Below are positions 2,066-35,431 of a DNA stretch of 35,431 nucleotides, one piece after another (the first letter of the stretch is position 1; each line of letters opens with the position of its first letter). The stretch lies in IMG/VR virus record IMGVR_UViG_3300008111_002316; one strand, 5' to 3'. Origin of the DNA: an uncultured virus (IMG/VR IMGVR_UViG_3300008111_002316). Taxonomy: Duplodnaviria > Heunggongvirae > Uroviricota > Caudoviricetes. Under the pieces are notes generated by a model. The model was not told where the DNA came from and searched no databases. It was given only the letters and a program-made list of their open reading frames with translations. Made by a program: the position numbers and the translations under genes.

Positions 2066-2222
2066 AAAGTTTTTACCAGTAAAAAATTTTTCCTTGTATT
2101 AAAGGATTGAGTGAACCCCTTGAAGGAAAGATTACCCCTGCATTATAACACAATAAAAAATTTTTAAAAATAAAAAAATCATGGTAGTATATGCACTAAA
2201 AAGCCAAAAAGTCAAGCGGTTA

Positions 2223-2291
2223 TGTGCCAGTTTATAAACTGTCCCAAAACACCAAAAACCCCTTGACATTACAAGAGATAAGTTACATAAT
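2223..2291 (+). promoter_or_regulatory. Palindromic operator plus sigma70-like promoter
   Basis: TGTGCCAGTTTATAAACTGTCCCA, then TTGACA(2263)-N17-CATAAT(2286). Confidence 0.75.
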
Positions 2292-2324
2292 AGAGACATA
2301 AACAAAAAACAAGAGTACCCAATT

Positions 2325-2753
2325 ATGAAGTTGTACCAAAAGATTGCAAGAGTTTTAAGTCAAAAAAACAAGTCGCTAAATGTGATAGAGAAAGAGTTAA
2401 CTTTGTTGAAAGAGTTATTGCCTAATGGTAATGTAATCGGATTACAACGTCATAACTTATCAACTGTGAGTTGCATTATATCCCTAAAATCAACTCACAA
2501 AAGAATAGTGATAGACACAGCGTATTGGCATCCAATCATAAGACAATGGACAGAGCATCAAGTAGTAATAACACCTAGTTTTGAGGACGAAATAAACATC
2601 CGAATAACTGGTAAAAATGAGGACAACGTTAAGGACTACTTACATGATATTTTTAGTGAGGCATTAATGAAAGAGTATGTAGTTTTTAAAAAGGGCTGGG
2701 ATGTCAAAGATTCATCAGAAATAGAATCTGAACTAGAATCTGAACTAGATTAA
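2325..2753 (+). CDS. Hypothetical phage protein
   Basis: 142-aa ORF after the promoter module; 12-bp tandem duplication at the C-terminus (ESELESELD). Confidence 0.75.
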   Translation: MKLYQKIARVLSQKNKSLNVIEKELTLLKELLPNGNVIGLQRHNLSTVSCIISLKSTHKRIVIDTAYWHPIIRQWTEHQVVITPSFEDEINIRITGKNEDNVKDYLHDIFSEALMKEYVVFKKGWDVKDSSEIESELESELD

Positions 2754-2977
2754 CAGACCAAAAAAGCTAAAGCAGTGGTAAGAATCACTGCTTTAATCTA
2801 AAATAACAATTGCAGGTGTGTGCATGAGGTTAGCACATAATAAAAACTTATTACAAGGATAATCAAAAGTTATATTAGGTAATCTTATGACGATAGGACA
2901 AAATTATAAGCAAAAATAATATTAGATAAACTTATGACAATACCTAAAACAGATAAAAAAAGACAAAACTAAAAGTA

Positions 2978-3006
2978 TTGACATTTTTTGAAAAAGATGA
3001 CATACT
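2978..3006 (+). promoter_or_regulatory. Sigma70-like promoter
   Basis: TTGACA-N17-CATACT; implies the real start of the next ORF is ATG 3039 after GGAG. Confidence 0.7.
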
Positions 3007-3038
3007 ATAAACATAAACGAAAACCGGAGTTACCAACC

Positions 3039-3452
3039 ATGACTACACTAGACACAATGATTTTAGATTATATCGCAATTGGGGCATATTGGGCATTTAA
3101 CGCTACCGTTGTATTCTTTACCGTAATGATGATAATATCGGGTGTTTTGCACGCATTTTGGGGCATTTTAGAGGGGGTGGATAGCCGAATATTTTATCCT
3201 CAAAACTTGCATAATATGGACACGACCGATACACAAATTGATACCCAAATTCCTAATTTAGAAAATCTAGAGGAAGACTTAAATTTAGTGTCTAAAATAG
3301 AGTCAATATCTCAAGTGGCGATTAAACAGGAACTGGTAGAATCAGAAGTGGTATCAATCAGACAATTAAAAGTGATGGCCAGAGAATTAAAAATTAAAGG
3401 TTATGGAAGTATGACAAAACAACAATTGATAGAAAAAATTCAACAGAGTTGA
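3039..3452 (+). CDS. Membrane-anchored protein with C-terminal Rho_N/HeH-like domain
   Basis: Hydrophobic N-terminal segment; C-terminal SIRQLKVMARELKIKGYGSMTKQQLIEKI matches the Rho termination factor N-terminal-like pattern. Confidence 0.65.
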   Translation: MTTLDTMILDYIAIGAYWAFNATVVFFTVMMIISGVLHAFWGILEGVDSRIFYPQNLHNMDTTDTQIDTQIPNLENLEEDLNLVSKIESISQVAIKQELVESEVVSIRQLKVMARELKIKGYGSMTKQQLIEKIQQS

Positions 3453-3471
3453 GAAAAAAGTCAAGGGGCTA

Positions 3472-3541
3472 TGTGCCAGTTTATAAACTGTCCTAAAACA
3501 CCAAAAAACCCCTTGACAATTCAATAGAACAGTGGCATAAT
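3472..3541 (+). promoter_or_regulatory. Palindromic operator plus sigma70-like promoter
   Basis: Near copy of the 2223 module; TTGACA(3513)-N17-CATAAT(3536). Confidence 0.75.
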
Positions 3542-3574
3542 AGACACATAAGCAAAAAATAGGAGTCACCAATT

Positions 3575-3922
3575 ATGTTTGTAAGATTAAGCTATCACAA
3601 TATCGACGACCTCTTTATTTTGTTTGATGCTGGGGTTATTGACTTAAAAACTAAGTCTCAGGTATCCCTATCAGAAATAGAAGACTATGATAATTTTGGA
3701 TGGTTAGAGTTAACGAGTAAAAATTTAGAGGCAATTTGTGAATATTGTGCAGAGTTAGGTATAGAGTCTAATGGTTCATTAGGTGATTTTCGTTACTGGT
3801 ATTCTGCGGACATGAACTACCATTTAGAGTTAAAAAGTGACCAGTCTGAAAACTTAGAGGTTAAAATTGGAGAAATCAACTTAAAGCTAGAGGGGTTAAA
3901 ATTAATTAAAAACGAAAGCTAA
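3575..3922 (+). CDS. Hypothetical protein, paralog of 4294..4689
   Basis: AGGAG RBS; shares LFDAGVIDL..IEDYDNFGWLELT with the 4294 ORF. Confidence 0.8.
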   Translation: MFVRLSYHNIDDLFILFDAGVIDLKTKSQVSLSEIEDYDNFGWLELTSKNLEAICEYCAELGIESNGSLGDFRYWYSADMNYHLELKSDQSENLEVKIGEINLKLEGLKLIKNES

Positions 3923-3929
3923 CAAAAAA

Positions 3930-3958
3930 AAAGGTTGAGAGCAATAGCTCAACCTTTT
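3930..3958 (+). terminator. Intrinsic terminator
   Basis: AAAGGTTGAG...CTCAACCTTTT. Confidence 0.75.
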
Positions 3959-4190
3959 AATTTGTGTCTAATCGAGTGCAAGGGTAAATTATCATGTTTG
4001 TACCATTTAAAGAATGCGAAAAAAATTGTTTTCACAGTTTAACGGCTTACATAGAATAGCATTGATAGAACTGCTGATTCTTATGTTTCTCTGGGGAGTA
4101 ATCGAGCAGTATAACCATTTCAAAAATGGTGGTACATTAAGAGATAGTGCAAGGGTACAAATTCAGGAAAAATAAGAGAGCCAGAGGGAT

Positions 4191-4259
4191 TGTGACAATT
4201 AAAAAACTGTCACAATCTAATTAAATCTCCTTGACAATTCAATAGAACAGTGGCATAAT
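4191..4259 (+). promoter_or_regulatory. Palindromic operator plus sigma70-like promoter
   Basis: TGTGACA-N10-TGTCACA, then TTGACA(4231)-N17-CATAAT(4254); the -35 to -10 stretch is identical to 3513-3541. Confidence 0.75.
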
Positions 4260-4293
4260 AGAGAAATAAGCCAAAAAGTACAGGGGTTAGACA

Positions 4294-4689
4294 ATGATTA
4301 AAGTAAGATTAAGCTATACACGACGACTTTATTTGTTTGATGCGGGGGTCATTGACTTAAACACTAAGTGTCAGGTATCACTAGATGACATAGAAGACTA
4401 TGATAATTTTGGATGGTTAGAGTTGACGGCGGATAAATTAGAAAATGTTTGTGAGTATTGTTCAAATTTAGGAATAGAATCTAATGTTACATTAAGTGAT
4501 TTTCCTTACTGGGAACTTTCTTACTGGTACTCCTACGACCAAAATTACCGTTTAGATATAAAAAGTGATTCAGGTGAGGACTTAGGTTTAGTTAATAAAA
4601 TATTTGAGATAAACTTAGGACTTTGGAAATCCAAGCTAATCAGAGAAAATAAAAATCTAAAACGGATAAATAGTTCGCTCAATATTTAA
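4294..4689 (+). CDS. Hypothetical protein, paralog of 3575..3922
   Basis: Clear nucleotide and protein similarity to ORF 3575. Confidence 0.8.
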   Translation: MIKVRLSYTRRLYLFDAGVIDLNTKCQVSLDDIEDYDNFGWLELTADKLENVCEYCSNLGIESNVTLSDFPYWELSYWYSYDQNYRLDIKSDSGEDLGLVNKIFEINLGLWKSKLIRENKNLKRINSSLNI

Positions 4690-4831
4690 GTGAGTGTTTA
4701 TTTATAAAGCTACAATGAAAAAGAAATCGTGCGGTAAGAAGATTAAAAAGGTTACTCCAAAGCCGGTTAAACCTTCTAAATAGTCAAGATAAGGACGGTG
4801 TATCCCGTCCTATTTTATTAAAATAAAAGTT

Positions 4832-5032
4832 ATGAATCTAATAAAAAATTGGTTAGTAATAATGTCTTCAGTAGGCTTATTAGGGGTTAGCGTATTGGCT
4901 ATTCAAAACCCTGACAAATTCGGGCGAAACGTTGTAGAAATAACAGCGGTGCTAATAACGTCAGTTATCACCTTAGCCAAACAAAGTGATGAACATCCTA
5001 AACAAAATGATGAACCGCCTAAGAAACCTTAG
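4832..5032 (+). CDS. Small two-TM membrane protein
   Basis: 66 aa, two hydrophobic segments and a charged tail. Confidence 0.55.
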   Translation: MNLIKNWLVIMSSVGLLGVSVLAIQNPDKFGRNVVEITAVLITSVITLAKQSDEHPKQNDEPPKKP

Positions 5033-5249
5033 AGCCTATTCCAAAAGTGCTAGTTTAAGAGGTATCACACCTGCAAAAAAGGTCAAAATATCAAGTCCAA
5101 TTATGCCAGTTTATTAATTGTCACATCTATCACAAAAAAGTCAAAATGTCAAGTAAAATTATGCCAGTTTAGAAAGTGTCACATATAGTATAGAAAGTTC
5201 TAAAAAAGGTGACATAATAGTAATATAAAGAAAAACACAGGAGTTCCAA

Positions 5250-5594
5250 ATGACTAACACGGTAAACGGTGAACTAACTTGGTTCAGAATATTAGGGCAA
5301 GATTGGAATGGTAAGACTCGTACAATGGAGATAGAGTTAGGCAAGTATGACGTAGGGGAATTAGAAAACTTAGGATTAGGATTAGGAGAATCCGAAAAAG
5401 AAGCGAGAGAGGTGATAAATCAATGGTTGAGGGCTATAGGTATTTATGAACCTCATGGCTTTTGGAGTGTTGATTTTAGTTCAGTAACGGATTATGATTG
5501 TCAGATTGAGTTAAGTGATGGACACTATTTAAGTGTAAATTGGGAGGACGATAAAAACTATGCTAAGTATCAAGAGATACTAAGACTTATCTAA
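5250..5594 (+). CDS. Cassette 1: hypothetical protein
   Basis: 114 aa, follows the shared promoter/RBS module (AAGAAAAACACAGGAGTTCC). Confidence 0.8.
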   Translation: MTNTVNGELTWFRILGQDWNGKTRTMEIELGKYDVGELENLGLGLGESEKEAREVINQWLRAIGIYEPHGFWSVDFSSVTDYDCQIELSDGHYLSVNWEDDKNYAKYQEILRLI

Positions 5595-5820
5595 GCTAAA
5601 TGTCAAGTCCAGATGTGCCAGTTTATAAATTGGCACATCTACCACAAAAAAGTAAAAATGTCAATACCGATTGTGCCAGTTTATTAATTGTCACATCTAC
5701 CACAAAAAAGTAAAAATGTCAAGTCAAATTATGCCAGTTTAGAAAGTGTCACAAAGGGTATAGACGTTTCTAAAAAAAGATGGCATAATAGTAATATAAA
5801 GAAAAACACAGGAGTTTCAA

Positions 5821-5964
5821 ATGATTAACCCACTCAGAATCAAATTATCTGCTAAACATATTGTGGCTAAACGGGGTAAAGAAATAGTAGTGATCTATAA
5901 TTTTATGCCCACAAATAATTGGAAAAAAAAAGCTAAATGGTTAAAAAAACTATTGTTTAGCTAA
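5821..5964 (+). CDS. Cassette 2: 47-aa basic protein (not in ORF track)
   Basis: MINPLRIKLSAKHIVAKRGKEIVVIYNFMPTNNWKKKAKWLKKLLFS, directly after the shared promoter/RBS; fills the gap between repeat blocks exactly. Confidence 0.7.
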   Translation: MINPLRIKLSAKHIVAKRGKEIVVIYNFMPTNNWKKKAKWLKKLLFS

Positions 5965-6362
5965 ATGTCTATAGGTAATGTGCCAGTTTATTAATTGGCA
6001 CATCTATCACAAAAGGTAAAAATGTCAATAGGTAATGTGCCAGTTTATAAATTGGCACAATAGGACTTAACAAAGAGTAAAGTCAATGCAGGTGGAAATG
6101 TGCCAGTTCATAAAGTGTCACAGCTACAACAAAAAAGTCAAACTGTCAATAGGAAATGTGCCAGTTTAGAAAGTGTCACAGCTATCATAAAAAGGTCAAA
6201 ATGTCAATAGGTAATGTGCCAGTTTAGTAATTGGCACATCTACCACAAAAAGTAAAAATGTCAATAGGTAATGTGCCAGTTTAGAAAGTGTCACATAGGG
6301 TATAGACATTTCTAAAAAAAGATGACATAATAGTAATATAAAGAAAAACACAGGAGTTCCAA

Positions 6363-6611
6363 ATGATTTACGACATCCCCCTGTTTGAAGTTGAATCCTC
6401 TGTCTTAATGTTTGTAGGTTATGAGCCAATTAGCGAAACATTAAGAATAGTATTTAAATCTGGAAGTGAGTACAAATATACAGGAGTACCAATTCAGGTG
6501 TATCAAAATCTCTGTAATGCAGAATCTATAGGACGAGAGTTCAATCGTACTATTCGTAACAAATACGATTGTACTCTAGTACAAGAGTTAAAAGTAGCAA
6601 GAAAAGCGTAA
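6363..6611 (+). CDS. Cassette 3: KTSC domain protein
   Basis: SS..VGY....TL.IVFKSGSEYKY.GVP..VYQ.L..AES.G..FN..IR..Y is the KTSC pattern. Confidence 0.9.
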   Translation: MIYDIPLFEVESSVLMFVGYEPISETLRIVFKSGSEYKYTGVPIQVYQNLCNAESIGREFNRTIRNKYDCTLVQELKVARKA

Positions 6612-6895
6612 ATGTCAATAGGTAATGTGCCAGTTTATTAATTGGCACAGCTACCACAAAAAAGTAAAAATGTCAAGTCCAATTATGCCAGTTTAGAAAG
6701 TGTCACAATAGGACTTGACAGAGAGTAAAGTCAATGCAGGTGAAAATGTACCAGTTCATAAAGTGTCATAGCTACCACAAAAAAGTCAAAATGTCAAGTC
6801 CAATTATGCCAGTTTAGAAAGTGTCACATACGGTATAGACAAATCTAAAAAAAGATGACATTATAGTTATATAGAGAAAAACACAGGAGTTCCAT

Positions 6896-7051
6896 ATGAA
6901 AACTATCGACCTAATAATTTCAGTATTATTTTCAGTATTAATTATCGGACTTTTATTTATGGCTACGATACCTAACCAGAAAAAAGTAGAATGTGAAGTT
7001 GAAAATCAAAGTCCTGCAACGGTACGCAAAGAATACTTATACATGAGATAA
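6896..7051 (+). CDS. Cassette 4: 51-aa single-TM protein (not in ORF track)
   Basis: MKTIDLIISVLFSVLIIGLLFMATIPNQKKVECEVENQSPATVRKEYLYMR after the shared promoter/RBS. Confidence 0.7.
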   Translation: MKTIDLIISVLFSVLIIGLLFMATIPNQKKVECEVENQSPATVRKEYLYMR

Positions 7052-7229
7052 AAAAGTCAAAATGTCAATAGGTAATGTGCCAGTTTAGTAATTGGCACAG
7101 CTACAACAAAAAAGTCAAAATGTCAATAGGAAATGTGCCAGTTTAGAAAGTGTCACATATGGCATAGACAAATCTAAAAAAAGATGACATAATAGTAATA
7201 TAAAGAAAAACAAAGGAGTTCCACAATCT

Positions 7230-7584
7230 ATGACTAACACAATTGTGAGAACACACCCCCTGGAGAAACCATTTCCGACATCTTGAAAGAGAGAGGAATA
7301 CCCTTACGAATATTTGCTAATCGGATGGAAATGTCAAGAAAGGAAGCCTTTCGACTGCTGGCAAGTGAAACTGAGATTACAGGTCGTATTGCTTGCAAAT
7401 TGCAGTATGCTTTCGGCTTACCTACTGCTCATTTTTGGAAAGAGCGTGAAAGACTTTACCGAGAATCTCTAGCAAATCAAAACAATGTAATGCAGAATCT
7501 AGGGAACAATAGTTCAATCGTACTATCCGAAACAGATACGACTGTACAGTAGTACAAGTGCTAAAAGTAACAAAAAAAGCGTAA
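7230..7584 (+). pseudogene. Cassette 5: frameshifted HigA/XRE-family HTH joined to a KTSC 3' remnant
   Basis: ATG 7230 (MTNTIVRTHP) shifts frame at a C-run into PGETISDILKERG..FANRM..EIT..IA.KL..FG..AHFW..RE.LYRESLA. About 7486-7584 is a diverged copy of the KTSC gene 3' end. Confidence 0.75.
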
Positions 7585-7810
7585 ATGTCAAGTCCAGATG
7601 TGCCAGTTTATTAATTGGCACAATAGGACTTAACAAAAAGCAAAGTTTATGCAGGAAGTAATGAACCAGTTTAAAAAGAGTCACATCTACCACAAAAAGG
7701 TCAAAATGTCAAGTCAAATTATGCCAGTTTAGAAAGTGTCACATACGGTATAGACAATTCTAAAAGAAGATGATATAATAGTAATATAAAGAAAAACAAA
7801 GGAGTTCCGC

Positions 7811-8566
7811 ATGAGTTACGACACCTTCCTGATTGAAGTTAAATCCTCTGACTTATTAGCTGTCGGTTATGAACAGCTATTAAAAAACATGGCTAGTAAT
7901 TTTCAAGATAAACTACCGGTAGTTATCTCAATTGGTGCTAAAGATGCGGGAAAAACCTTTAATTATATTCAGCTATCTCGCCTACAGTCTTGGGGAAATT
8001 TTTTAAATAAAGTTGATCCTAAAAATCAAGAAAATTCCGGAGAAAATCTGGGTTTAATATTTCCTTTACTCCAATCACAAAATTTAAATGATAAGTCCAA
8101 AAATATTCTTGAACAAGCACGGCTAAATGTAAATAATACACTCAATCATAATTGTCAATTTTCCATATCGGATTTTAAAGACAGAATAACGCAGTCTCTA
8201 TCTAATCAAGATTGGAACGAGGTAGATTGGGCAAAATTTTGGGTCAAAGAATTTTCGAGAGTTTTAGGGTATAATCAGGAAAATTATCAACTAAATAAAC
8301 TGCATGAATACCTTAAACAAAAAAACTCGAAGATTATATTTTTAATTGATGGATTAGAAGATGCTTTTCCTAATGTCGCCAATGATAACGATAACCTTCA
8401 ACGAAAAGCCTTGAAAGCTTTGATCGATCATTTACCGAATAAATTAACAGAAATTAAGCAATCTAATCTAGGATTGATTGTCTTTCTGCGTCGAGATTTC
8501 TTGAGATATACAATCACACAAAACTCAGCACAATTTGAAAACTTATATCGTGAATACCGTTTTTAG
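7811..8566 (+). CDS. Cassette 6: KTSC N-terminus fused to a P-loop NTPase fragment
   Basis: MSYDTFLIEVKSSDLLAVGYE aligns with KTSC MIYDIPLFEVESSVLMFVGYE; then Walker A GAKDAGKT and Walker B IIFLIDGLED; appears C-terminally truncated. Confidence 0.75.
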   Translation: MSYDTFLIEVKSSDLLAVGYEQLLKNMASNFQDKLPVVISIGAKDAGKTFNYIQLSRLQSWGNFLNKVDPKNQENSGENLGLIFPLLQSQNLNDKSKNILEQARLNVNNTLNHNCQFSISDFKDRITQSLSNQDWNEVDWAKFWVKEFSRVLGYNQENYQLNKLHEYLKQKNSKIIFLIDGLEDAFPNVANDNDNLQRKALKALIDHLPNKLTEIKQSNLGLIVFLRRDFLRYTITQNSAQFENLYREYRF

Positions 8567-8928
8567 TGAAGACGGCAAACTACTAAAGAGTCAATAGGAA
8601 ATGTGCCAGTTTAGTAATTGGCACATCTACCACAAAAAGTAAAAATGTCAATAGGTAATGTGCCAGTTTATAAAGTGTCACATCTACCACAAAAAAGTAA
8701 AAATGTCAATAGGAAATGTGCCAGTTCATAAAGTGTCACATCTACCACAAAAAAGTAAAAATGTCAATAGGAAATGTGCCAGTTCATAAAGTGTCACAGC
8801 TACAACAAAAAAGTAAAAATGTCAATAGGTAATGTGCCAGTTTAGAAAGTGTCACATATGGCATAGACAAATCTAAAAAAAGATGACATAATAGTAATAT
8901 AAAGAAAAACAAAGGAGTTCCACAATCT

Positions 8929-9090
8929 ATGACTAACACAATTGAGGAAGCCTTTCGACTGCTGGCAAGTGAAACCGAGATTACTGATAGTATTGCTTGC
9001 AAATTGGAGAATGCTTTCGGTTTACCTAATGCTCATTTTTGGATATTGAGTGAAGAGCTTTACCGAGAATCTCTAGCAAGAAAAGCGTAA
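8929..9090 (+). CDS. Cassette 7: 53-aa internally deleted HigA-like ORF ending in the KTSC terminal codons
   Basis: MTNTIEEAFRLLASETEITDSIACKLENAFGLPNAHFWILSEELYRESLARKA; the last 17 nt TAGCAAGAAAAGCGTAA equal the KTSC gene end. Confidence 0.7.
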   Translation: MTNTIEEAFRLLASETEITDSIACKLENAFGLPNAHFWILSEELYRESLARKA

Positions 9091-9312
9091 AATGTCAATA
9101 GGAAATGTGCCAGTTTATAAATTGGCACACCTACCATAAAAAGGTAAAAATGTCAAGTCCCAATGTGCCAGTTTAAAAAGTGTCACAATAGGACTTGACA
9201 AAAAGTAAAATTTATGCAGGTGATACCCCTACCCCTCTTTTAGGCTAAAAAAGAAAGTGCCTCCTTTTTGTCCTAAATTTTTTTTTTGAAAATGAAAAAT
9301 CAATTTAGGCGT

Positions 9313-10194
9313 AAAACTGTACTACTTAACCAAAATCAATAAAACTCAATCATATCAAGGGTTTTAGCGTTTTTACTTTAAAAAACACCATTTTAAAATC
9401 AATAAAGCCCAGTCATAGTATAGCTTTGACCTGTTTGTACTATGTAGTAGGGGGGATAACTTTATTTTTTTTTTATCTACTACGCCTTTAATCATCGCAG
9501 TTTAGGTACAAAAAAAACATAAACTATATAGAATGAGCAAATTAAAGCATTCGGAAGTCCTAATAAGGTGAGTCTGTTTTTTTTTTTTTTGCTTTAACAG
9601 GGCGGGTTTTAGACTTTTCCGTATAGTGGCTTTTTTCTTTTAGCATTGTTCCACTTTAAGGTGGACATACACTACAGACAATAATAAACAGCCTTTTACC
9701 ACACTTCAGAGCGGGTCGTGATACTTTTACTATTAAACGAATTTGTAATGGTCTAAGGGGTTAAAAATGGGTAAATGAGCAAATGTGGGCTAAATATTTA
9801 AAATATGTATTTAATTTTTGGTAGGTTGATTTTTGAATACCCTAGAATTAAAGTAATCTAGTATCCTATCCCCCATTCTATTTTTTTTTTTCGCTATGTA
9901 TATAGCATAGCATGGGTATAAACAAAATGTCAAGGGGTAGTGGAAAAATATTTTTTTTGGGGGGTGGGGTAAGGGAGAGAGGCAAAAAAGTATGAGAGTT
10001 TTTAAACTGCGATGATTAAAAGTGTAGTAGATAAAAAAAATAAAGTTATCCCCCCTACTACATAGTACAAACAGGTCTAAGCTATGCTATGACTGAATTT
10101 TATTGATTTTTAAATGGTGTTTTTTAAAGTCAAAAATGTTAAAACCCTTAATAAGATTGAGTTTTATTGATTTTTAGAGGGGTAGTACAGTTTT
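9313..10194. repeat. Non-coding element with ~190-bp inverted arms (copy 1)
   Basis: 9313-9504 is an imperfect reverse complement of 10003-10194; core GACCTGTTTGTACTATGTAGTAGGGGGGATAACTTTATTTTTTT. Confidence 0.9.
9904..9933 (-). promoter_or_regulatory. Internal promoter of the inverted-repeat element
   Basis: TTGACA-N18-TATGCT with TG extension; conserved in copy 2 (35317-35346, TATGAT). Confidence 0.6.
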
Positions 10195-10269
10195 TTGAGT
10201 ACAGCGAAAAACAACAAAAAAAGCCCCTCTTTTGGGACTAAAAGAAGGGTTAAACGGCTAAAGTGGAAA

Positions 10270-11154
10270 TCAAAGAGAACAGGTAGAACCAAGTCGATAT
10301 TTGATGTCAAAAGCTAACTGACGATTAAAGGAACTCCAATGTTCAAGGGAACGGGAATTAGAAAGATTAAAGCATTGTTCAGAAGGGAGATTGGTTAAAC
10401 ACCAGCTTAAAAGTTTAGGTTGGTCAACGTCAGTATTAAGAGAAGTAATACCGGGACGTTGAATAGAAATACAATAAGGAATACAGGATTGAGAAAGGAT
10501 ATAAGATTGGAGAATGGATAATTCATGAGGATTACGGATAGCACCAATAACAACATCATGACGACGTTGGAGAAGCAAAAAATCTAAAGAATGACGAAGA
10601 AAAGGGGCAGAAAACTCTGGGTCAATTTTATCACGCATAACAGACCAAGAGCAGATTTCCAAATCTTTTAAAGAAAGATGGTCAACACTATCGGGCAAAA
10701 GAATATGGGTGATAAAACGGTGAGTCATGTCATAAAGAGAAACATTATAAGCACCATAAGTGTCAGAATAAAACTTGGAACAATAATGATAGGAAGCCAA
10801 AGAGGTATTAGAGTAATGACGGTGTAGAAATTCAAAACATCTGTCAAAAAGAATACCCATTTTGTTATTAAGAAAACGGTAAAAATTTGGAACAGAAGCC
10901 TTACCTTCAGGGGTATGCAAAGAACCGGACGGTAAATCGCACATAGACTCTAAGAAGGTTTTTAGGTCTTGAATAGGATGGAGAGGAACAAAAGAATGTT
11001 CCTGAAAAGCGTTTTGAGCAACGGATTTACCAGAACCAGAATCACCAAAGATAAGAACCAATTTAGGTAGAATTGATAAATTGGGGGAAGCAATACTAGA
11101 CATAGGAAAAAGTGGTAGGATTAAACTATACAATATAGTATAGCTTAAGTCCAA
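10270..11154 (-). CDS. P-loop protein, deoxynucleoside monophosphate kinase-like
   Basis: LVLIFGDSGSGKS, VVIGAIRNPHEL and ISIQRPG resemble phage dNMP kinases; true start probably the internal Met (MSSIAS). Confidence 0.6.
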   Translation of the reverse strand: MDLSYTILYSLILPLFPMSSIASPNLSILPKLVLIFGDSGSGKSVAQNAFQEHSFVPLHPIQDLKTFLESMCDLPSGSLHTPEGKASVPNFYRFLNNKMGILFDRCFEFLHRHYSNTSLASYHYCSKFYSDTYGAYNVSLYDMTHRFITHILLPDSVDHLSLKDLEICSWSVMRDKIDPEFSAPFLRHSLDFLLLQRRHDVVIGAIRNPHELSILQSYILSQSCIPYCISIQRPGITSLNTDVDQPKLLSWCLTNLPSEQCFNLSNSRSLEHWSSFNRQLAFDIKYRLGSTCSL

Positions 11155-11258
11155 AAAAAAAAGTCAACTATTTTAGAGTTGACTTTCAAAATTAATTTTC
11201 AGGGAAATGAGACTCCAAATAGTTCCTAATTTCCTGAATTTTTGCCTGTTGATAGCTG

Positions 11259-11384
11259 TTAAAAAGAGACAGAAAAGATTGAGTGGTGAAGCCAAAGTGT
11301 AAGCACAAACAATCCCACGAAAAAAAACTGGTGGTAGTTTTTGGCTACTAGAAATTTTTGAGCAATTAATTCATCGTCTGTCAT
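11259..11384 (-). CDS. 41-aa hydrophobic peptide
   Basis: MTDDELIAQKFLVAKNYHQFFFVGLFVLTLWLHHSIFSVSF with a GAGG RBS, between two copies of the same hairpin. Confidence 0.4.
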   Translation of the reverse strand: MTDDELIAQKFLVAKNYHQFFFVGLFVLTLWLHHSIFSVSF

Positions 11385-11456
11385 GGGTAAAGTCCTCTAG
11401 GGAATAAAAAAAAAATAATCGCACATTTTAGGTATTATAAGCGAAAACTTGAAAAA

Positions 11457-11481
11457 AAGTCAACTATTTTAGAGTTGACTT
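11457..11481 (-). terminator. Terminator hairpin after nrdA, duplicated at ~11160-11185
   Basis: AAGTCAACT-ATTTT(T)AG-AGTTGACTT with an A run on the + strand side. Confidence 0.7.
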
Positions 11482-11497
11482 GTTAGAAAAAGTTTAA

Positions 11498-13030
11498 TTA
11501 ATCACCGGCACAAGCTTCACAATATTGGGAATCGAGATTACAGACAACAACATCAGAAGAAGAAAAAGGGTAGTCGTCAGAATCAAATAAAGCATCAAAG
11601 TCAACGTCTGATACAGATTGAGAATTAGGCAGATAGGAAAGAGCATCAAGAGCCTCATCGGAAATGACACGAGACTTATCGTTAGAAGATTGGAGAGTTG
11701 CCAGACGGTAGTAAGTAGTTTTGAGGTCAGAAGCAAGGAAAGTATCAATAAAAGATTCATCAACAGGACAAGTATCCCAAATATTAGCGGAAATAGAATG
11801 GCTAAGACCAGTAGAGTCCATTAAACGTTGCCAAATATTAAGAAGTCGCCATTGAGTATCCCAACCGACATGGGAAGCAATTTGAACGTTGGGGTGAAAA
11901 TGAAAAATTTGAGAACCAAAAGTTTCAGAGGTACGTTCAATAGAACGACTTAAAGGAGGGCTAATTTCAGGAGTAATAGAGAAGCCTTGAGAATCAAAAT
12001 GCTTAGTAAAAGAGGTTGCGGTAGGAGCAACGCAGAAAACACGGTCAAAGTTGTAAAGCTGACCAATATCAGCCGCTTCATGGTAGCCTAAAGCAAGATA
12101 GAAAGCAATTTGTTGGGGAAGATGGAAAGAAGAAACAAACGGAAGAGTACAACGGAGAATATCAGGACGGAAACCAGAAGTCATCTCTTCAATGGACTCT
12201 AAAGCAGAAACGAAATCGGAATAGGAAACATCATGGATAGCTAAAAAAGAAGCTAAACCAATAACACCAAGTCCAATTTGTTTGTCTTCGGCAGGGGAAA
12301 GATATTGACCAGTTTCACCAACACCAGTAAGAGGATGTAAACGAGCTAACCATTCAGCCCCTTGACGGAAAGCAGTGGGAATCTCATGAGGAGAAAGTAA
12401 ACCCAAATTGATATTAGAGATAAGACAGGTAGCCCGACTTTTTAGTAAAATTTCTAAACAAACATTACTATAAAGACGTTCACCATGTTTATCGTATTGC
12501 TTTTTAGCTAACCAAACAGTACCATTGTCAACAGCTTCAGCTAATTTTGCTTTGATAGGATGAGTTTTTAGACCATCATCAACGTACATGGCTAATTTAA
12601 TCCAAGCATTTTCAAATTCGTCAGCATTTAAAAAAGCCAAAGCGTCAGGGTTATCGTAGTCTAGATAAACAGTAACAGCCCCATTTTTAAAAACCCCTCC
12701 TCGACGAAGAGTTTCATTAAGTCGAGAGTAAAGAGACATAAAACTAACAGCACCAGAAGCGACAAGACCTTTATCGTTAGTAGAACCAGAGGGGCGTAAA
12801 GAGTTAAGGTCAATAGCACAGCCTGCGGCATTACGAAGAGCATGAGAAGTAAAAATCCAACTAGCTTCAATGCCATTATCACCTTCCATAGAGTCTTCGA
12901 CATGGAAGACAGTACAACTAACAGGAAGACGACCTTCGCCCCAATCCCGAACACGACCAGTAAGAGCTAATCCATGTGGGATTTCGTTAAAAAGGTCATT
13001 TTTTAAAGCTTGACGTTCGGATTCAATCAT
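11498..13030 (-). CDS. nrdA: Ribonucleotide reductase alpha subunit, short cyanophage class I type
   Basis: GRLPVSCTVF, SNVCLE (N-C-E), QIGLGVIGLA, APTATS, the TYYR tyrosine pair typical of class I, and C-terminal CEAC. Confidence 0.92.
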   Translation of the reverse strand: MIESERQALKNDLFNEIPHGLALTGRVRDWGEGRLPVSCTVFHVEDSMEGDNGIEASWIFTSHALRNAAGCAIDLNSLRPSGSTNDKGLVASGAVSFMSLYSRLNETLRRGGVFKNGAVTVYLDYDNPDALAFLNADEFENAWIKLAMYVDDGLKTHPIKAKLAEAVDNGTVWLAKKQYDKHGERLYSNVCLEILLKSRATCLISNINLGLLSPHEIPTAFRQGAEWLARLHPLTGVGETGQYLSPAEDKQIGLGVIGLASFLAIHDVSYSDFVSALESIEEMTSGFRPDILRCTLPFVSSFHLPQQIAFYLALGYHEAADIGQLYNFDRVFCVAPTATSFTKHFDSQGFSITPEISPPLSRSIERTSETFGSQIFHFHPNVQIASHVGWDTQWRLLNIWQRLMDSTGLSHSISANIWDTCPVDESFIDTFLASDLKTTYYRLATLQSSNDKSRVISDEALDALSYLPNSQSVSDVDFDALFDSDDYPFSSSDVVVCNLDSQYCEACAGD

Positions 13031-13080
13031 TGAAAAATCTCCAAAAAAGTAAAAAGGTTGACAAAAAGAAGACTCAAAAA

Positions 13081-13443
13081 TTATTGAGGTGGTTTATTGA
13101 AAGGGGGAGTCTCTAAACCAAGAGACTGTTTTTGCATCGTCAACAAAAGAATATGCTGAGAGACAGTTTTTTGAAACAGCAAAGTAATTAACTCTTTGAT
13201 GCGTTCACTGCGAGCATTTAAATCTGGGATAGAAAACCGAATATGAGTGGCATTACGGGGCAAAAAATCACAGCTAAAAGCTTTATCGACTTCAAGCATC
13301 ATTCGTGCTAACTCGAATTGGTTAGGCAGGGAAAGATTTTGAGCAATATCTAAACGATTCTCTTCTTCATTGTGAAAAGAGCGGGTGTGAGCAAAGATGG
13401 TTGGCTCGTCTTCAGGATAATTTTCAGGGTTTAAAACAGGCAT
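13081..13443 (-). CDS. Hypothetical protein
   Basis: 120-aa ORF co-oriented with nrdA. Confidence 0.65.
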   Translation of the reverse strand: MPVLNPENYPEDEPTIFAHTRSFHNEEENRLDIAQNLSLPNQFELARMMLEVDKAFSCDFLPRNATHIRFSIPDLNARSERIKELITLLFQKTVSQHILLLTMQKQSLGLETPPFNKPPQ

Positions 13444-13520
13444 AAGCAGAAATTTTCAGGTTCTAAAACAGGCTTGAAGTAAATTTGAACAGAGTTTCGT
13501 AAATAGTATTTATTGTTGTA

Positions 13521-13769
13521 CTACCCTGATAATACTAGCATTCCTTCAATATTAGGACGGTCATTTTCTTCTGATTTTTCGTAAGTCGCTTCTTTGGCTT
13601 TATCAATCCAAGCATTAATTTGATCGTGTCTAATTGCTCCATAATCGACTTCATCATCAACTTCATTTTCAATCTTAATTCCTATAATTGAGAAACAGAA
13701 TAAAAAATTGTATAAATCAGTTTCGTTGACCGATTGTACTAACTCTTTAAGAACTTGTTTAGCGTCCAT
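13521..13769 (-). CDS. Hypothetical protein (start revised to MDAKQ)
   Basis: GGAG RBS before ATG 13769; the upstream codons (KQEMNVNIF) belong to a TnpB-end remnant. Confidence 0.6.
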   Translation of the reverse strand: MDAKQVLKELVQSVNETDLYNFLFCFSIIGIKIENEVDDEVDYGAIRHDQINAWIDKAKEATYEKSEENDRPNIEGMLVLSG

Positions 13770-13779
13770 TGTTATTTCT

Positions 13780-13875
13780 CCGTTATAAAAAATGTTAACA
13801 TTCATTTCTTGCTTCACTGTGGTAAGGACGTCCTAACACCACTCCACAAGCTAACACGAGCTAACTGCCCGCTTT
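13780..13875 (-). mobile_element. IS607/IS605-type TnpB 3' end and right-end remnant
   Basis: GTGTTAGCTTGTGGAGTGGTG...ACCACAGTGAAGCAAGAA...ATAACGG resembles the VLACG...VKQE tail of cyanobacterial TnpB and a GG-terminated IS607 end; no tnpB ORF. Confidence 0.5.
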
Positions 13876-13951
13876 ACCCTAGTTAAAAGGGGTTTTGACC
13901 CGTTATAATTAAGCTTGGTTTTCGCCTAACTAATTTTGTTGGGTTAAACCC

Positions 13952-13980
13952 AGTATAACAGATGGTAGTTATGATGTCAA
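13952..13980 (-). promoter_or_regulatory. Sigma70-like promoter
   Basis: TTGACA-N17-TATACT on the - strand. Confidence 0.75.
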
Positions 13981-14002
13981 GGGGGTTTGAGAAAAAAAAT
14001 TT

Positions 14003-14140
14003 TTAAGAATTGCGAGCTTTTTTACGAAGGGCGAAAACGGATTCAACGGGATTAGAAGTAGTTTTGCGGGGTTGTTTAGGGGAATCATTAGACCGTTTAC
14101 GACTTTCTTGACGACCATCCCCACCAGAAGTTTTTACCAT
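14003..14140 (-). CDS. 45-aa basic protein (not in ORF track)
   Basis: MVKTSGGDGRQESRKRSNDSPKQPRKTTSNPVESVFALRKKARNS, with T-ending codon bias like its neighbours. Confidence 0.5.
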   Translation of the reverse strand: MVKTSGGDGRQESRKRSNDSPKQPRKTTSNPVESVFALRKKARNS

Positions 14141-14205
14141 AAAAAAAATTGGAAACACTACACTAGAAAAGCGAGCGTGACCAATTTTTTTTGCTTGAAC
14201 GAGGA

Positions 14206-14502
14206 TTAATTATCACCCAAAACTTCGTATTGACCATCTATCGACGGCAAAAGACTGTTTTTGGTTTCGGGACTAACTAATAAGTTGGCAGTAACGGTAG
14301 TTTCAACAAAAGAGCCATTATTGGCTGGAAACGTTCTAAGATGCTCAGAAAAATCTAGTTGAAAAGGAGTATTGGGAGGCAATTTTTCTAAAACAAAGTC
14401 GAGTATTTGCCCATAAAGAGAGTGACGAATAGCGGAGTGTTGAGCTTGGTAATAGGTAGAATGGCACTGGTTAGAGACGGATATAGTTTCTAAAATAATC
14501 AT
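14206..14502 (-). CDS. Hypothetical protein
   Basis: 98 aa, AGGA RBS. Confidence 0.6.
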   Translation of the reverse strand: MIILETISVSNQCHSTYYQAQHSAIRHSLYGQILDFVLEKLPPNTPFQLDFSEHLRTFPANNGSFVETTVTANLLVSPETKNSLLPSIDGQYEVLGDN

Positions 14503-14512
14503 GTGTTTTGTC

Positions 14513-14929
14513 CTATTTTATTGCATACTTAAGATTTTCTAGATTAAGATATTCTAGACTGAGAAAATATAAGCAAGACATCTCTCCTTCTACAAATATA
14601 ATTGAAGCTATTGCAATAGTTACAGCAAAAAGATTAGTATTCTTTTTAAGCTGGTCAGGAACATTGACTCTGAAAAACAATATTACTGTAGCTAACAATA
14701 GTTGATTTTTGATAACTTCACGAAAATTCAGTACAGTATTTTCGTTTATTACACCATACGCATAAACTAGCCCATTGGCAATAGTGCGGTTGTAACAATG
14801 TTTAAGCAATGCTGAAAACTGTGGTTTTTGTTTTGCTTCATTGACTAAATCAGCGATAAAATCTTTTGTTGATTTAGGTAAATTATCGCAAACACTTTTG
14901 ATAGCTATTGCACCTCCGTAACTAATCAT
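14513..14929 (-). CDS. Hypothetical protein with hydrophobic segments
   Basis: 138 aa, AAGGAG RBS, upstream TTGACA. Confidence 0.65.
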   Translation of the reverse strand: MISYGGAIAIKSVCDNLPKSTKDFIADLVNEAKQKPQFSALLKHCYNRTIANGLVYAYGVINENTVLNFREVIKNQLLLATVILFFRVNVPDQLKKNTNLFAVTIAIASIIFVEGEMSCLYFLSLEYLNLENLKYAIK

Positions 14930-34829: not shown

Positions 34830-35431
34830 TGTACTACTTGGTCTGAAATAAATAAGATTTAATTATATCAGGGGTTTTAACGTTTTAGACTTAAAAAAAG
34901 TGCTATTTTAAAATCAATAAAACCCAATCATAGTATGGCTTTGACCTGTTTGTACTATGTAGTAGGGGGGATAACTTTATTTTTTTTTTTTATCCCTTAC
35001 CCCTTTAATCATCGCATTGGAGGGTTCCAAATTTTAAACAATTCCTTTCTTTTCAGAGCGGGTTCATAACACAGCCTTTTCCTTTCCTTTCAGAAGGGGT
35101 TCATAATCCAGCCTTCCTTGCACTTCAGAGCGGGTCATGATACTTTTACCATTAAACTAATTTGTATTGGTCTAAGGGTTAAAAAATGGGTAAATGGGTC
35201 AATGTGGGCTAAATATTTAAATATATATTTAATTTTTGGTAGGTTTATTTGTGAATACCCTAGAATTAAAGTATCCTAGTATCCTATCCCCCACTCTATT
35301 TTTTTGCTATGTATCTATCATAGCATAGGAATAAACAAAATGTCAAGAGGTAGTGGAAAAAAATTTTTTGGGTAAAGGGGGTAAAGGGAAAATTTGTTTT
35401 AAAGGTAAACTGCGATGAATAATGAGGTGAG
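34830..35431. repeat. Inverted-repeat element, copy 2 (right arm cut by the window end)
   Basis: 34830-35016 matches the left arm of copy 1; 35121-35370 matches 9703-9960; TAAACTGCGATGA at 35406 begins the right arm. Confidence 0.9.

Follow-up and report, generated by a model that had tools for sequence, protein, structure and literature searches.

Chimeric genes built on KTSC remnants in the cassette array of a Mic1-like Microcystis phage

The closest described relative of the locus considered here is the early region gp63–gp73 of the Microcystis phage Mic1, whose genes are immediate-early. According to the available text of the Mic1 RNA-seq study (PMC11237433), gp49–gp73 form the early class and the gp69–gp73 cluster peaks at 0.5 h, and the accessible part of the Mic1 genome paper (PMC7156551, Yang et al. 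2020) reports the same repeated promoter motifs that we find here, ×10 and ×8. Cassette turnover and chimeras are not described in the accessible portions of these two papers (PMC7156551, PMC11237433). We analysed a 35,431-nucleotide stretch of DNA from an uncultured virus (IMG/VR record IMGVR_UViG_3300008111_002316), hereafter the window, in which positions 5086–9223 are an array of seven cassettes; cassette 3 is an intact gene for a KTSC-domain protein, and cassettes 5, 6 and 7 contain pieces of such a gene joined to other sequences. The Mic1 region has the same promoter motif, 58-nucleotide repeat, and KTSC, cassette-2 and cassette-4 gene types, and both arrays lie upstream of gp74 and NrdA. 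Mic1 differs in that its three KTSC copies, one of which is unannotated, are all full-length, and in lacking KTSC remnants, a HigA-like gene and a copy of gp5 in its array. By homology to Mic1, "early cassettes" would be a fair description of the window array.

Phage mosaicism by illegitimate recombination and "moron" acquisition joins foreign open reading frames (ORFs) where homology is short or absent, and those whose products are expressed are then retained by selection. Unlike this general mosaicism, the target in the window is a redundant gene inside a repeated promoter–leader scaffold, and the import in cassette 6 borrows the resident promoter, ribosome-binding site and first 21 codons. 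In the gene accordions of poxviruses, the copy number of early or accessory genes changes fast through repeats. Repeat-driven segmental amplification of phage counter-defence loci is described in the available text of PMC13096335; the window array is likewise repeat-driven, but it consists of promoter-led mini-genes, with no known homing endonuclease or selection regime. Orphan antitoxin-like counter-defence genes of phages are described in the accessible part of PMC11825919. The HigA-like gene of the window is also without a toxin partner, but it scores below the TIGR02607 cut-off and is damaged in the window. Finally, in fold the cassette 6 model comes closest to BrxC and ORC/Cdc6, yet with only 12–15% sequence identity; unlike BrxC, the phage protein is only a core that lacks the C-terminal half of its family domain, and BREX genes are absent from its neighbourhood.

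The window phage is a Mic1-like Microcystis siphophage. Its array region has 81.5% nucleotide identity to Mic1, and 3′ of the array are homologues of Mic1 gp74 and NrdA, with NrdA and its neighbours syntenic with Mic1. The closest record is a near-identical 33-kb viral contig (G001, which is the same record as L020), and the sister genomes L018, L019, L021, L022 and L029, all IMG/VR contigs, have 97.9–100% identity to the window. Each cassette consists of 58-nucleotide palindromic repeats in variable number, a promoter, a near-constant leader with GGAG at its end, and a small ORF with its ATG. There is one promoter per cassette, at 5191, 5761, 6303, 6836, 7165, 7751 and 8864, and all seven have, on the + strand, a TAGACA-like hexamer, a 17-nucleotide spacer and TG-n-CATAAT (extended −10); they are predicted to be sigma-70-type extended −10 promoters. 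The 58-nucleotide repeat is present in 21 copies between 2206 and 9203, with a core palindrome TGTGCCA-N10-TGGCACA or TGTGCCA-N10-TGTCACA. The final copy adjoins each −35 hexamer, and the arrangement looks like a putative operator array for a dimeric regulator. The number of repeats ahead of a promoter ranges from 0 to 8 among near-identical genomes, KTSC cassettes number one in the window, two in L021 and three in Mic1, and the Mic1 array has three cassettes each of the cassette-2 and cassette-4 types. Homologous recombination between the repeated non-coding modules alters the number of cassettes and repeats, even in near-identical genomes.

The chimeras in this array are real, and we consider it likely that they arose in an unstable immediate-early array by ordinary, imprecise recombination at microhomologies, with redundant KTSC copies as the target. 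The features concerned are listed below.

6198–6362, + strand: 58-nucleotide palindromic repeats, promoter (6303–6331) and leader with ribosome-binding site of cassette 3
6363–6611, + strand: cassette 3, intact KTSC-domain gene, 82 amino acids (Pfam PF13619)
7059–7229, + strand: repeats, promoter (7165–7193) and leader of cassette 5
7230–7286, + strand: cassette 5 ATG and 18-codon dead-end ORF, with a TG insertion at about 7246–7247
7238–7483, + strand: HigA-like helix-turn-helix frame of cassette 5 (TIGR02607), with native gene sequence to about 7483
7476–7584, + strand: KTSC 3′ remnant in cassette 5 (blastn)
7585–7810, + strand: repeats, promoter (7751–7779) and leader of cassette 6
7811–7872, + strand: KTSC 5′ remnant, codons 1–21, with the start codon of the cassette 6 chimera (blastn)
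7873–7877, + strand: KTSC–gp5 junction, where the parents are imperfectly similar; the blastn match to contig L023 begins at 7875
7875–8566, + strand: gp5-type AAA+ core fragment
8567–8586, + strand: 3′ untranslated region carried with the gp5-type gene, 18 of 20 nucleotides common with contig L027, ending at the first 58-nucleotide repeat
8585–8928, + strand: five 58-nucleotide repeats, promoter (8864–8892) and leader of cassette 7
8929–9090, + strand: cassette 7 HigA-like gene, 53 amino acids, with a 114-nucleotide in-frame deletion (junction 8946/8947)
9074–9090, + strand: KTSC-type tail of cassette 7 (TAGCAA, last KTSC codons, stop), matching the cassette 3 end 6595–6611

The cassette 3 protein matches Pfam KTSC (PF13619) with E = 3.2e-19 and 68.8 bits (cut-off 25), over profile positions 1–58 of 58. 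The ratio of nonsynonymous to synonymous substitution rates (dN/dS; NG86 estimates throughout) is 0.25–0.26 between cassette 3 and the Mic1 copies and 0.19–0.45 among KTSC copies overall. When cassette 3 was compared with the whole window by blastn, only two matches besides itself were obtained. KTSC nucleotides 140–249 recur at 7476–7584 (83.6%, E = 5e-28; 92/109 nucleotides identical), and nucleotides 1–62 recur at 7811–7872 (80.6%, E = 4e-11; 50–51 of 63 nucleotides identical). None of 2000 shuffled sequences reached the identity of either remnant. A previous reading of the window, made from the sequence only, had described a KTSC-like first ~21 codons fused in frame to a P-loop NTPase fragment in cassette 6, a KTSC 3′ end behind a HigA-like helix-turn-helix gene in cassette 5, and a HigA/KTSC junction at TAGCAA in cassette 7, and these similarities prove to be significant. 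Immediately after TAGCAA, cassette 7 continues with the last codons of KTSC, and its final 17 nucleotides match the end of cassette 3. The remnants are about equally similar (79–85%) to all five KTSC copies tested, Mic1-type and cassette 3 type alike, so that either type may be their source.

The same reading proposed that a KTSC cassette had been duplicated and copies partly replaced. The copy numbers given above bear out the duplication, and the short imperfect homologies at the junctions agree with partial replacement. Such redundancy would make KTSC a tolerated insertion target. However, a special role for KTSC as landing pad is not supported, since the 5′ junction of the HigA cassettes is in the leader; what serves as pad is the scaffold of the cassette, with KTSC simply its redundant occupant. 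The junctions are at different sites, namely the leader and KTSC nucleotides ~62, ~140 and ~232, and those in KTSC are within coding sequence, at short imperfect homologies. The array thus does not have the one fixed recombination site of an integron-like system; no search for an integrase was made. The remnants in three cassettes are real, but they would reflect two junction events rather than three, with cassette 7 more simply explained as a deleted cassette-5-like copy.

Cassette 6 (7811–8566) reads from KTSC-like residues 1–21 in frame into the NTPase fragment, and the 251-residue protein does not match Pfam KTSC, only its 21 codons being KTSC-derived. Among the best 150 of 335 homologue matches, residues 22–249 align to the interior (about 450–700) of proteins that are mostly ~850–950 residues long, and no homologue's best stretch begins before cassette 6 residue 7. 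The fragment is also a free-standing gene in contigs L023–L028. This gene is Mic1_05 (gp5), between gp4 and the flap endonuclease gene; in Mic1 it is at 8171–8791 (L036:6024–6644). These contigs have only the NTPase segment and 234 nucleotides in common with the window, but an unrelated phage lineage was ruled out by the 95% identity of L025 to Mic1 2148–14780. They are a different locus of the same phage family.

The window copy shares with the L024 and L027 alleles of gp5 a truncated end, ...YRF followed by a stop, at a site where the host gene and the longer L023 allele continue for hundreds of codons. Because this stop and the 3′ untranslated region behind it are common to the insert and gp5, we conclude that a gp5-type phage gene was the immediate donor of cassette 6. 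At about 8586 the imported untranslated region meets a 58-nucleotide repeat. From sequence comparison, then, the insert is a copy of a Mic1-family gp5, and only its deeper origin is the host. Full-length relatives of the fusion are not widespread: the KTSC–gp5 fusion was seen only in this phage species (five contigs with the identical 251-residue ORF, and one truncated contig) and in the public variant protein P0274, a second fusion allele with an open frame and a gp5-type C-terminus. Contigs from the RNA libraries of two studies span the KTSC–gp5 junction with no differences. Cassette 6 is itself a mosaic, in which residues 117–185 have 93–95% identity to gp5 alleles and 88.9% to the host. 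This mosaic structure and the C-terminus of P0274 indicate that exchange among gp5 and cassette 6 copies continues.

The helix-turn-helix frame of cassette 5 matches TIGR02607 with E = 3.1e-7 and 30.1 bits, under the cut-off of 47.7, as does its homologue in phage MaMV-DH01 (31.4 bits, also under 47.7), and it matches PHROG 1381, "plasmid antitoxin with HTH domain", with E = 1e-7. Its amino acid identity to the XRE gene of MaMV-DH01, in the C-terminal half of the latter, is 71.6%. This relative is a 148-residue gene of Ma-LMM01-type phages, with 83.6% nucleotide identity in MaMV-DH01, DL01 and DL02 and 72.8% in MaMV-DC. Another relative, of 93 residues, lies beside gp5 in L024 but is encoded on the other strand (L024:5474–5755, minus), directly upstream of gp5 (5953–6528) and divergent from it. 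HigA-like and gp5 gene types neighbour each other at two loci of the phage family. A protein search for the HigA-like gene returned only three close proteins, all from this phage group. Near cassette 5 no HigB-type toxin was seen, with no toxin-like ORF in 6896–9300, where the neighbours are cassettes 4 and 6 and repeat blocks. We favour a role for the HigA-like genes as putative regulators or orphan antitoxins.

The native HigA-like gene starts MTNT.EN and ends ...RESLANQ followed by 2–3 residues. Given this native start, the ATG of cassettes 5 and 7 came in with the gene itself. The 5′ junction of both HigA cassettes is in the leader, directly after GGAGTTCCA, and the leader of cassette 5 has 5 extra nucleotides ahead of the ATG, as does that of cassette 7. 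Cassette 1, which encodes 114 residues of no family and is otherwise unrelated to the HigA-like genes, also starts Met-Thr-Asn-Thr. An apparent 11–12 nucleotides are common to these starts (5250–5261 versus 7230–7241 and 8929–8940; length approximate), by chance or from an old junction. We considered whether the MTNT start of cassettes 5 and 7 had been borrowed from cassette 1 and rejected this, MTNTTEN being the native start of the HigA-like gene in L024. At the 3′ end, cassette 5 is joined to KTSC at 7483–7486, with an ATCAAAA-like microhomology. In two X1 contigs the match to the window HigA sequence gives way to different sequence after 7481 and 7483, which supports this placement.

The sequence-only reading needs correction in some details. 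The frame in which cassette 5 reads its KTSC remnant is not that of KTSC and gives a 25-residue tail, and its ATG at 7230 is out of frame with the helix-turn-helix because two extra nucleotides, TG, have been inserted at about 7246. In 6/6 sister contigs these are absent and the ORF is intact, with 106 residues. In cassette 7, the deletion of 114 nucleotides (38 codons) removes the first half of the helix-turn-helix, and a 91-residue ORF is present in 4/4 sister contigs that reach it. RNA-library contigs of X17 and X18 contain cassette 5 without the insertion, and the loose end of an X18 contig contains an undeleted cassette 7. Among public variant proteins, P0270 has a cassette-7 body with a cassette-5 tail, and P0271 has a cassette-5 head with a cassette-7 tail. 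These hybrids show that recombination between the HigA paralogues is ongoing.

The history that we propose is as follows. Recombination at short imperfect homologies overwrote parts of KTSC copies. In one event, KTSC codon 21 was joined in frame to a gp5-type copy that brought its stop codon and ~20 nucleotides of 3′ untranslated region. In another, a HigA-like helix-turn-helix gene with its own ATG was placed behind a cassette ribosome-binding site and its 3′ end joined to KTSC at nucleotide ~140. The HigA cassette was then probably duplicated, and one copy may have lost its KTSC remnant by slippage between TAGCAA-like sequences to give cassette 7; a deletion from the TAGCAA in the HigA end to a TAGCAA-like site close to the KTSC end in a cassette-5-like copy would give exactly the tail observed. 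Both HigA cassettes were damaged afterwards in the window. The net effect would be to place accessory genes under an immediate-early promoter. Alternatively, a block consisting of the gp5 fragment, a promoter and HigA may have replaced KTSC nucleotides 63–139 once, with the HigA cassette duplicated upstream later. This order fits the gene order from cassette 6 to cassette 7, and also P0270.

Several points weigh against microhomology recombination into redundant KTSC copies as we have set it out. Both HigA cassettes are broken in the window, and the HigA paralogues (cassette 5 versus full-length cassette 7) have dN/dS = 0.76, so the HigA part may be decaying. Cassette 6 residues 186–247 have 94% nucleotide identity to the host allele and 83–90% to gp5 alleles, and either a later exchange with the host or an unsampled gp5 allele must be assumed for this part. 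The closest record, G001, stops short of the gp5 locus, and the gp5 alleles compared come from related contigs. The RNA-library contigs may contain DNA, and bins without RNA-library cover do not indicate silence. Expression and activity of the chimeras are thus predictions. The order of events is our reconstruction, in which one block or two events, and slippage or paralogue recombination, could each be accommodated; P0270 and P0271 fit either.

It might be argued that the array is a hypervariable junkyard and that cassettes 5, 6 and 7 are pseudogenes without a function of their own. Cassette 5 is frameshifted in the window and its KTSC tail is out of frame, cassette 7 is without half its helix-turn-helix, the dN/dS of the HigA paralogues is 0.76, and the Mic1 array is without both inserts. 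Furthermore, the Walker A sequence of cassette 6, GAKDAGKT, has D at a Gly conserved in at least 90% of the family. However, we find this explanation doubtful. All sister contigs have intact forms of cassettes 5 and 7, the 5/5 contigs that cover cassette 6 have one and the same unbroken ORF there, the P0274 frame is also open, and the junction is present in RNA-library contigs. Further contrary evidence comes from the gp5 fragment itself. Residues 117–247 of gp5 and cassette 6 have dN/dS = 0.20–0.35 in all phage–phage and phage–host pairs, whereas the P-loop segment, residues 24–60, has dN/dS = 0.45–2.0 among phage copies and versus the host allele, highest in the copies with a dead Walker A. 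In the gp5 genes of L024, L025 and L027, a frame-breaking deletion is followed ~20 nucleotides on by a 1-nucleotide insertion that restores the frame. We found 34 short variants, of 155–339 residues; in the phage-type variants among the 17 of 34 that were read, Walker A is often mutated or deleted and the C-terminal ~130 residues are kept. The C-terminal ~130 residues of the gp5 fragment are under purifying selection, and the phage family has long retained this piece of host ATPase.

The sequence-only reading had envisaged three KTSC duplications, with each copy separately replaced by DNA taken directly from the host. We regard this as decidedly unlikely. The NTPase part does have 90.6% nucleotide identity to the M. 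aeruginosa gene and 89.9% to L023 gp5, residues 186–247 are the most host-like, and KTSC copy number varies. However, an immediate host donor for cassette 6 is not supported, as shown by the ...YRF truncation and 18 of 20 untranslated nucleotides common with phage gp5, where the host gene and L023 read on, and by residues 117–185, which are closer to gp5 alleles than to the host; a host source survives only as the deeper origin. A host donor for HigA fares no better: its close relatives are only in Microcystis phages, and in a scan of genome contigs for a cellular relative 0 of 384 candidate stretches were confirmed. The tail of cassette 7 is explained by deletion in a cassette-5-like copy.

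As to that deeper origin, sequence comparison indicates that gp5 is an internal fragment (residues ~478–705) of a ~913-residue Microcystis KGGVGR/Sll1717 two-ATPase protein. Two ATPase regions make up the host protein, a ParA-like KGGVGR domain in its N-terminal part (138–332) and a second, Sll1717-type region from ~490, and the phage piece is the first half of this second region. The gp5-type fragment has 85–86% amino acid and 90.6% nucleotide identity to M. aeruginosa proteins of 913–923 residues; one M. aeruginosa homologue cluster has 175 member sequences and is on a 5.48-Mb contig. After Microcystis, the nearest named cyanobacteria (Dolichospermum, Calothrix, Nostoc and others) have 47–55% identity. 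Cassette 6 scores 29.6 bits against the Sll1717 family model NCBIfam NF047389, under the cut-off of 75 for full-length members. The match covers profile positions 35–242 of 454, and thus cassette 6 is a fragment of the Sll1717 domain. No PHROG family was found for cassette 6 or gp5, and PADLOC models gave no match to the phage fragments.

An AlphaFold2 model of cassette 6, made from a 52-sequence alignment, has a mean predicted local distance difference test score (pLDDT) of 90.7 and a predicted template modelling score (pTM) of 0.89; only residues 1–12 are below 50. A Foldseek search of the PDB with this model gave no match at E ≤ 0.001, the best being BrxC at 4.9e-3. In an exhaustive structure alignment, BrxC of BREX was first (9zll_A, Z = 10.4, root-mean-square deviation 3.8 Å, 186 residues aligned), followed by ORC/Cdc6 (Z = 8–9), RdrA (7.8) and Avs3 (7.5), so the lead of BrxC is modest. 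On the model, the fragment is predicted to be a BrxC/ORC-like AAA+ core and not a ParA fold.

The alternative that gp5 and the cassette 6 insert are ParA ATPases, acting with ParB and a parS palindrome in plasmid prophage maintenance, is very improbable: Mic1_05 is annotated "ParA family protein", as full-length host homologues often are, and the accessible part of the Mic1 genome paper argues for a ParABS system (PMC7156551), but the ParA-like KGGVGR domain is outside the captured segment, cassette 6 has no match to Pfam ParA, CbiA or AAA_31, the predicted fold is nearest BrxC and ORC/Cdc6, Mic1 gp5, like many other alleles, has a degenerate or deleted Walker A, and the sequence in L024, L025 and L027 that corresponds to the parS-like palindrome is a downstream inverted repeat followed by a T run, which is terminator-like. 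This repeat is around 6530–6640 in those contigs. The ParABS case for Mic1 looks weak.

The gp5 fragment would most plausibly act without ATP binding, by binding the host ATPase or its partners; we favour a putative non-enzymatic, binding role. The large host gene has a small neighbour. A 144–147-residue ORF was found upstream of it in four of six loci (L012, L015, L016 and L017), from Microcystis, two Electrothrix and one uncultured bacterium; in L013 no such ORF was identified, and L014 breaks off before reaching the place. A conserved two-gene operon of this kind (~145 residues plus a ~920-residue KGGVGR/Sll1717 double ATPase; L012:408–3583 and L015:2148–5344, also L016 and L017) was observed in Microcystis, many other cyanobacteria and Desulfobulbales-type metagenome-assembled genomes. 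In L012 it adjoins toxin–antitoxin genes. The 923-residue host protein matches, in one fused chain, models B (E = 1.3e-15) and C (E = 1.3e-10) of the PADLOC candidate system PDC-M28, and the upstream 144-residue ORF matches model A weakly (E = 0.0026). At two further loci B and C matched again, with A at 0.0011 in one and without a match in the other; across loci, E for B and C ranges from 1e-9 to 1e-15. A literature search found no paper naming PDC-M28 or KGGVGR. These matches provide a lead that the host operon is a candidate defence system. We offer as a tentative possibility, one that we would not rank as likely, that the gp5 fragment is an ATP-independent decoy or subunit poison of this PDC-M28-related candidate defence, that the array, by moving a second copy of it behind an immediate-early promoter, is an evolvable launch pad for counter-defence genes, and that the HigA-like genes are orphan antitoxins or Aca-like regulators.

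The locus provides a new base-level record of a redundant resident gene overwritten inside a promoter–leader scaffold, and of a gp5-type fragment redeployed to an early cassette. Its junctions show, at the level of single bases, a cyanophage rewiring accessory genes to what would be immediate-early expression, and the recombination products segregate in natural populations as intact, frameshifted, deleted and hybrid alleles. Also new is the probable identity of the Mic1 "ParA", a piece of a BrxC-like host ATPase that selection has kept; this overturns the ParA/ParABS reading of Mic1 gp5, which had underlain a published suggestion of persistence as a plasmid prophage. The widespread cyanobacterial two-gene operon of a small protein and a ~913-residue KGGVGR/Sll1717 ATPase is a likely phage-interaction system, for which the phage fragment would be a natural probe. 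The host forms harmful blooms, and phage–host dynamics are studied for bloom control.

Other observations concern the array and its surroundings. The gp67–gp70 interval of Mic1 (L001:2969–5790) contains unannotated promoter-led cassette ORFs: the third KTSC copy (L001:4464–4712, with an N in the record), three 47-residue ORFs of cassette-2 type and one 81-residue ORF of gp73 type. The third cassette-4-type ORF of Mic1, at L001:7101–7250, is also unannotated. In L020 and L021, the stop codon of cassette 4 has been lost by a short deletion (L020:5178–5369 and L021:5184–5369 versus window 6896–7051), and the ORF runs into the repeat, giving 63 and 61 residues versus 51, so that cassette 4 too has been rearranged recently. 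A second cassette type is present upstream in the window, with TTGACA...CATAAT promoters at 2254–2327, 3504–3577 and 4222–4295. It includes a duplicated ORF pair, 3575–3922 and 4294–4689, with 83% identity over 181 nucleotides (3619–3799 versus 4332–4512). Further repeats flank the array end: an inverted pair is ~190 nucleotides long (9313–9504 versus 10003–10194), and a segment of ~250 nucleotides near the window end (35121–35369) matches a sister-contig stretch just 3′ of the array.

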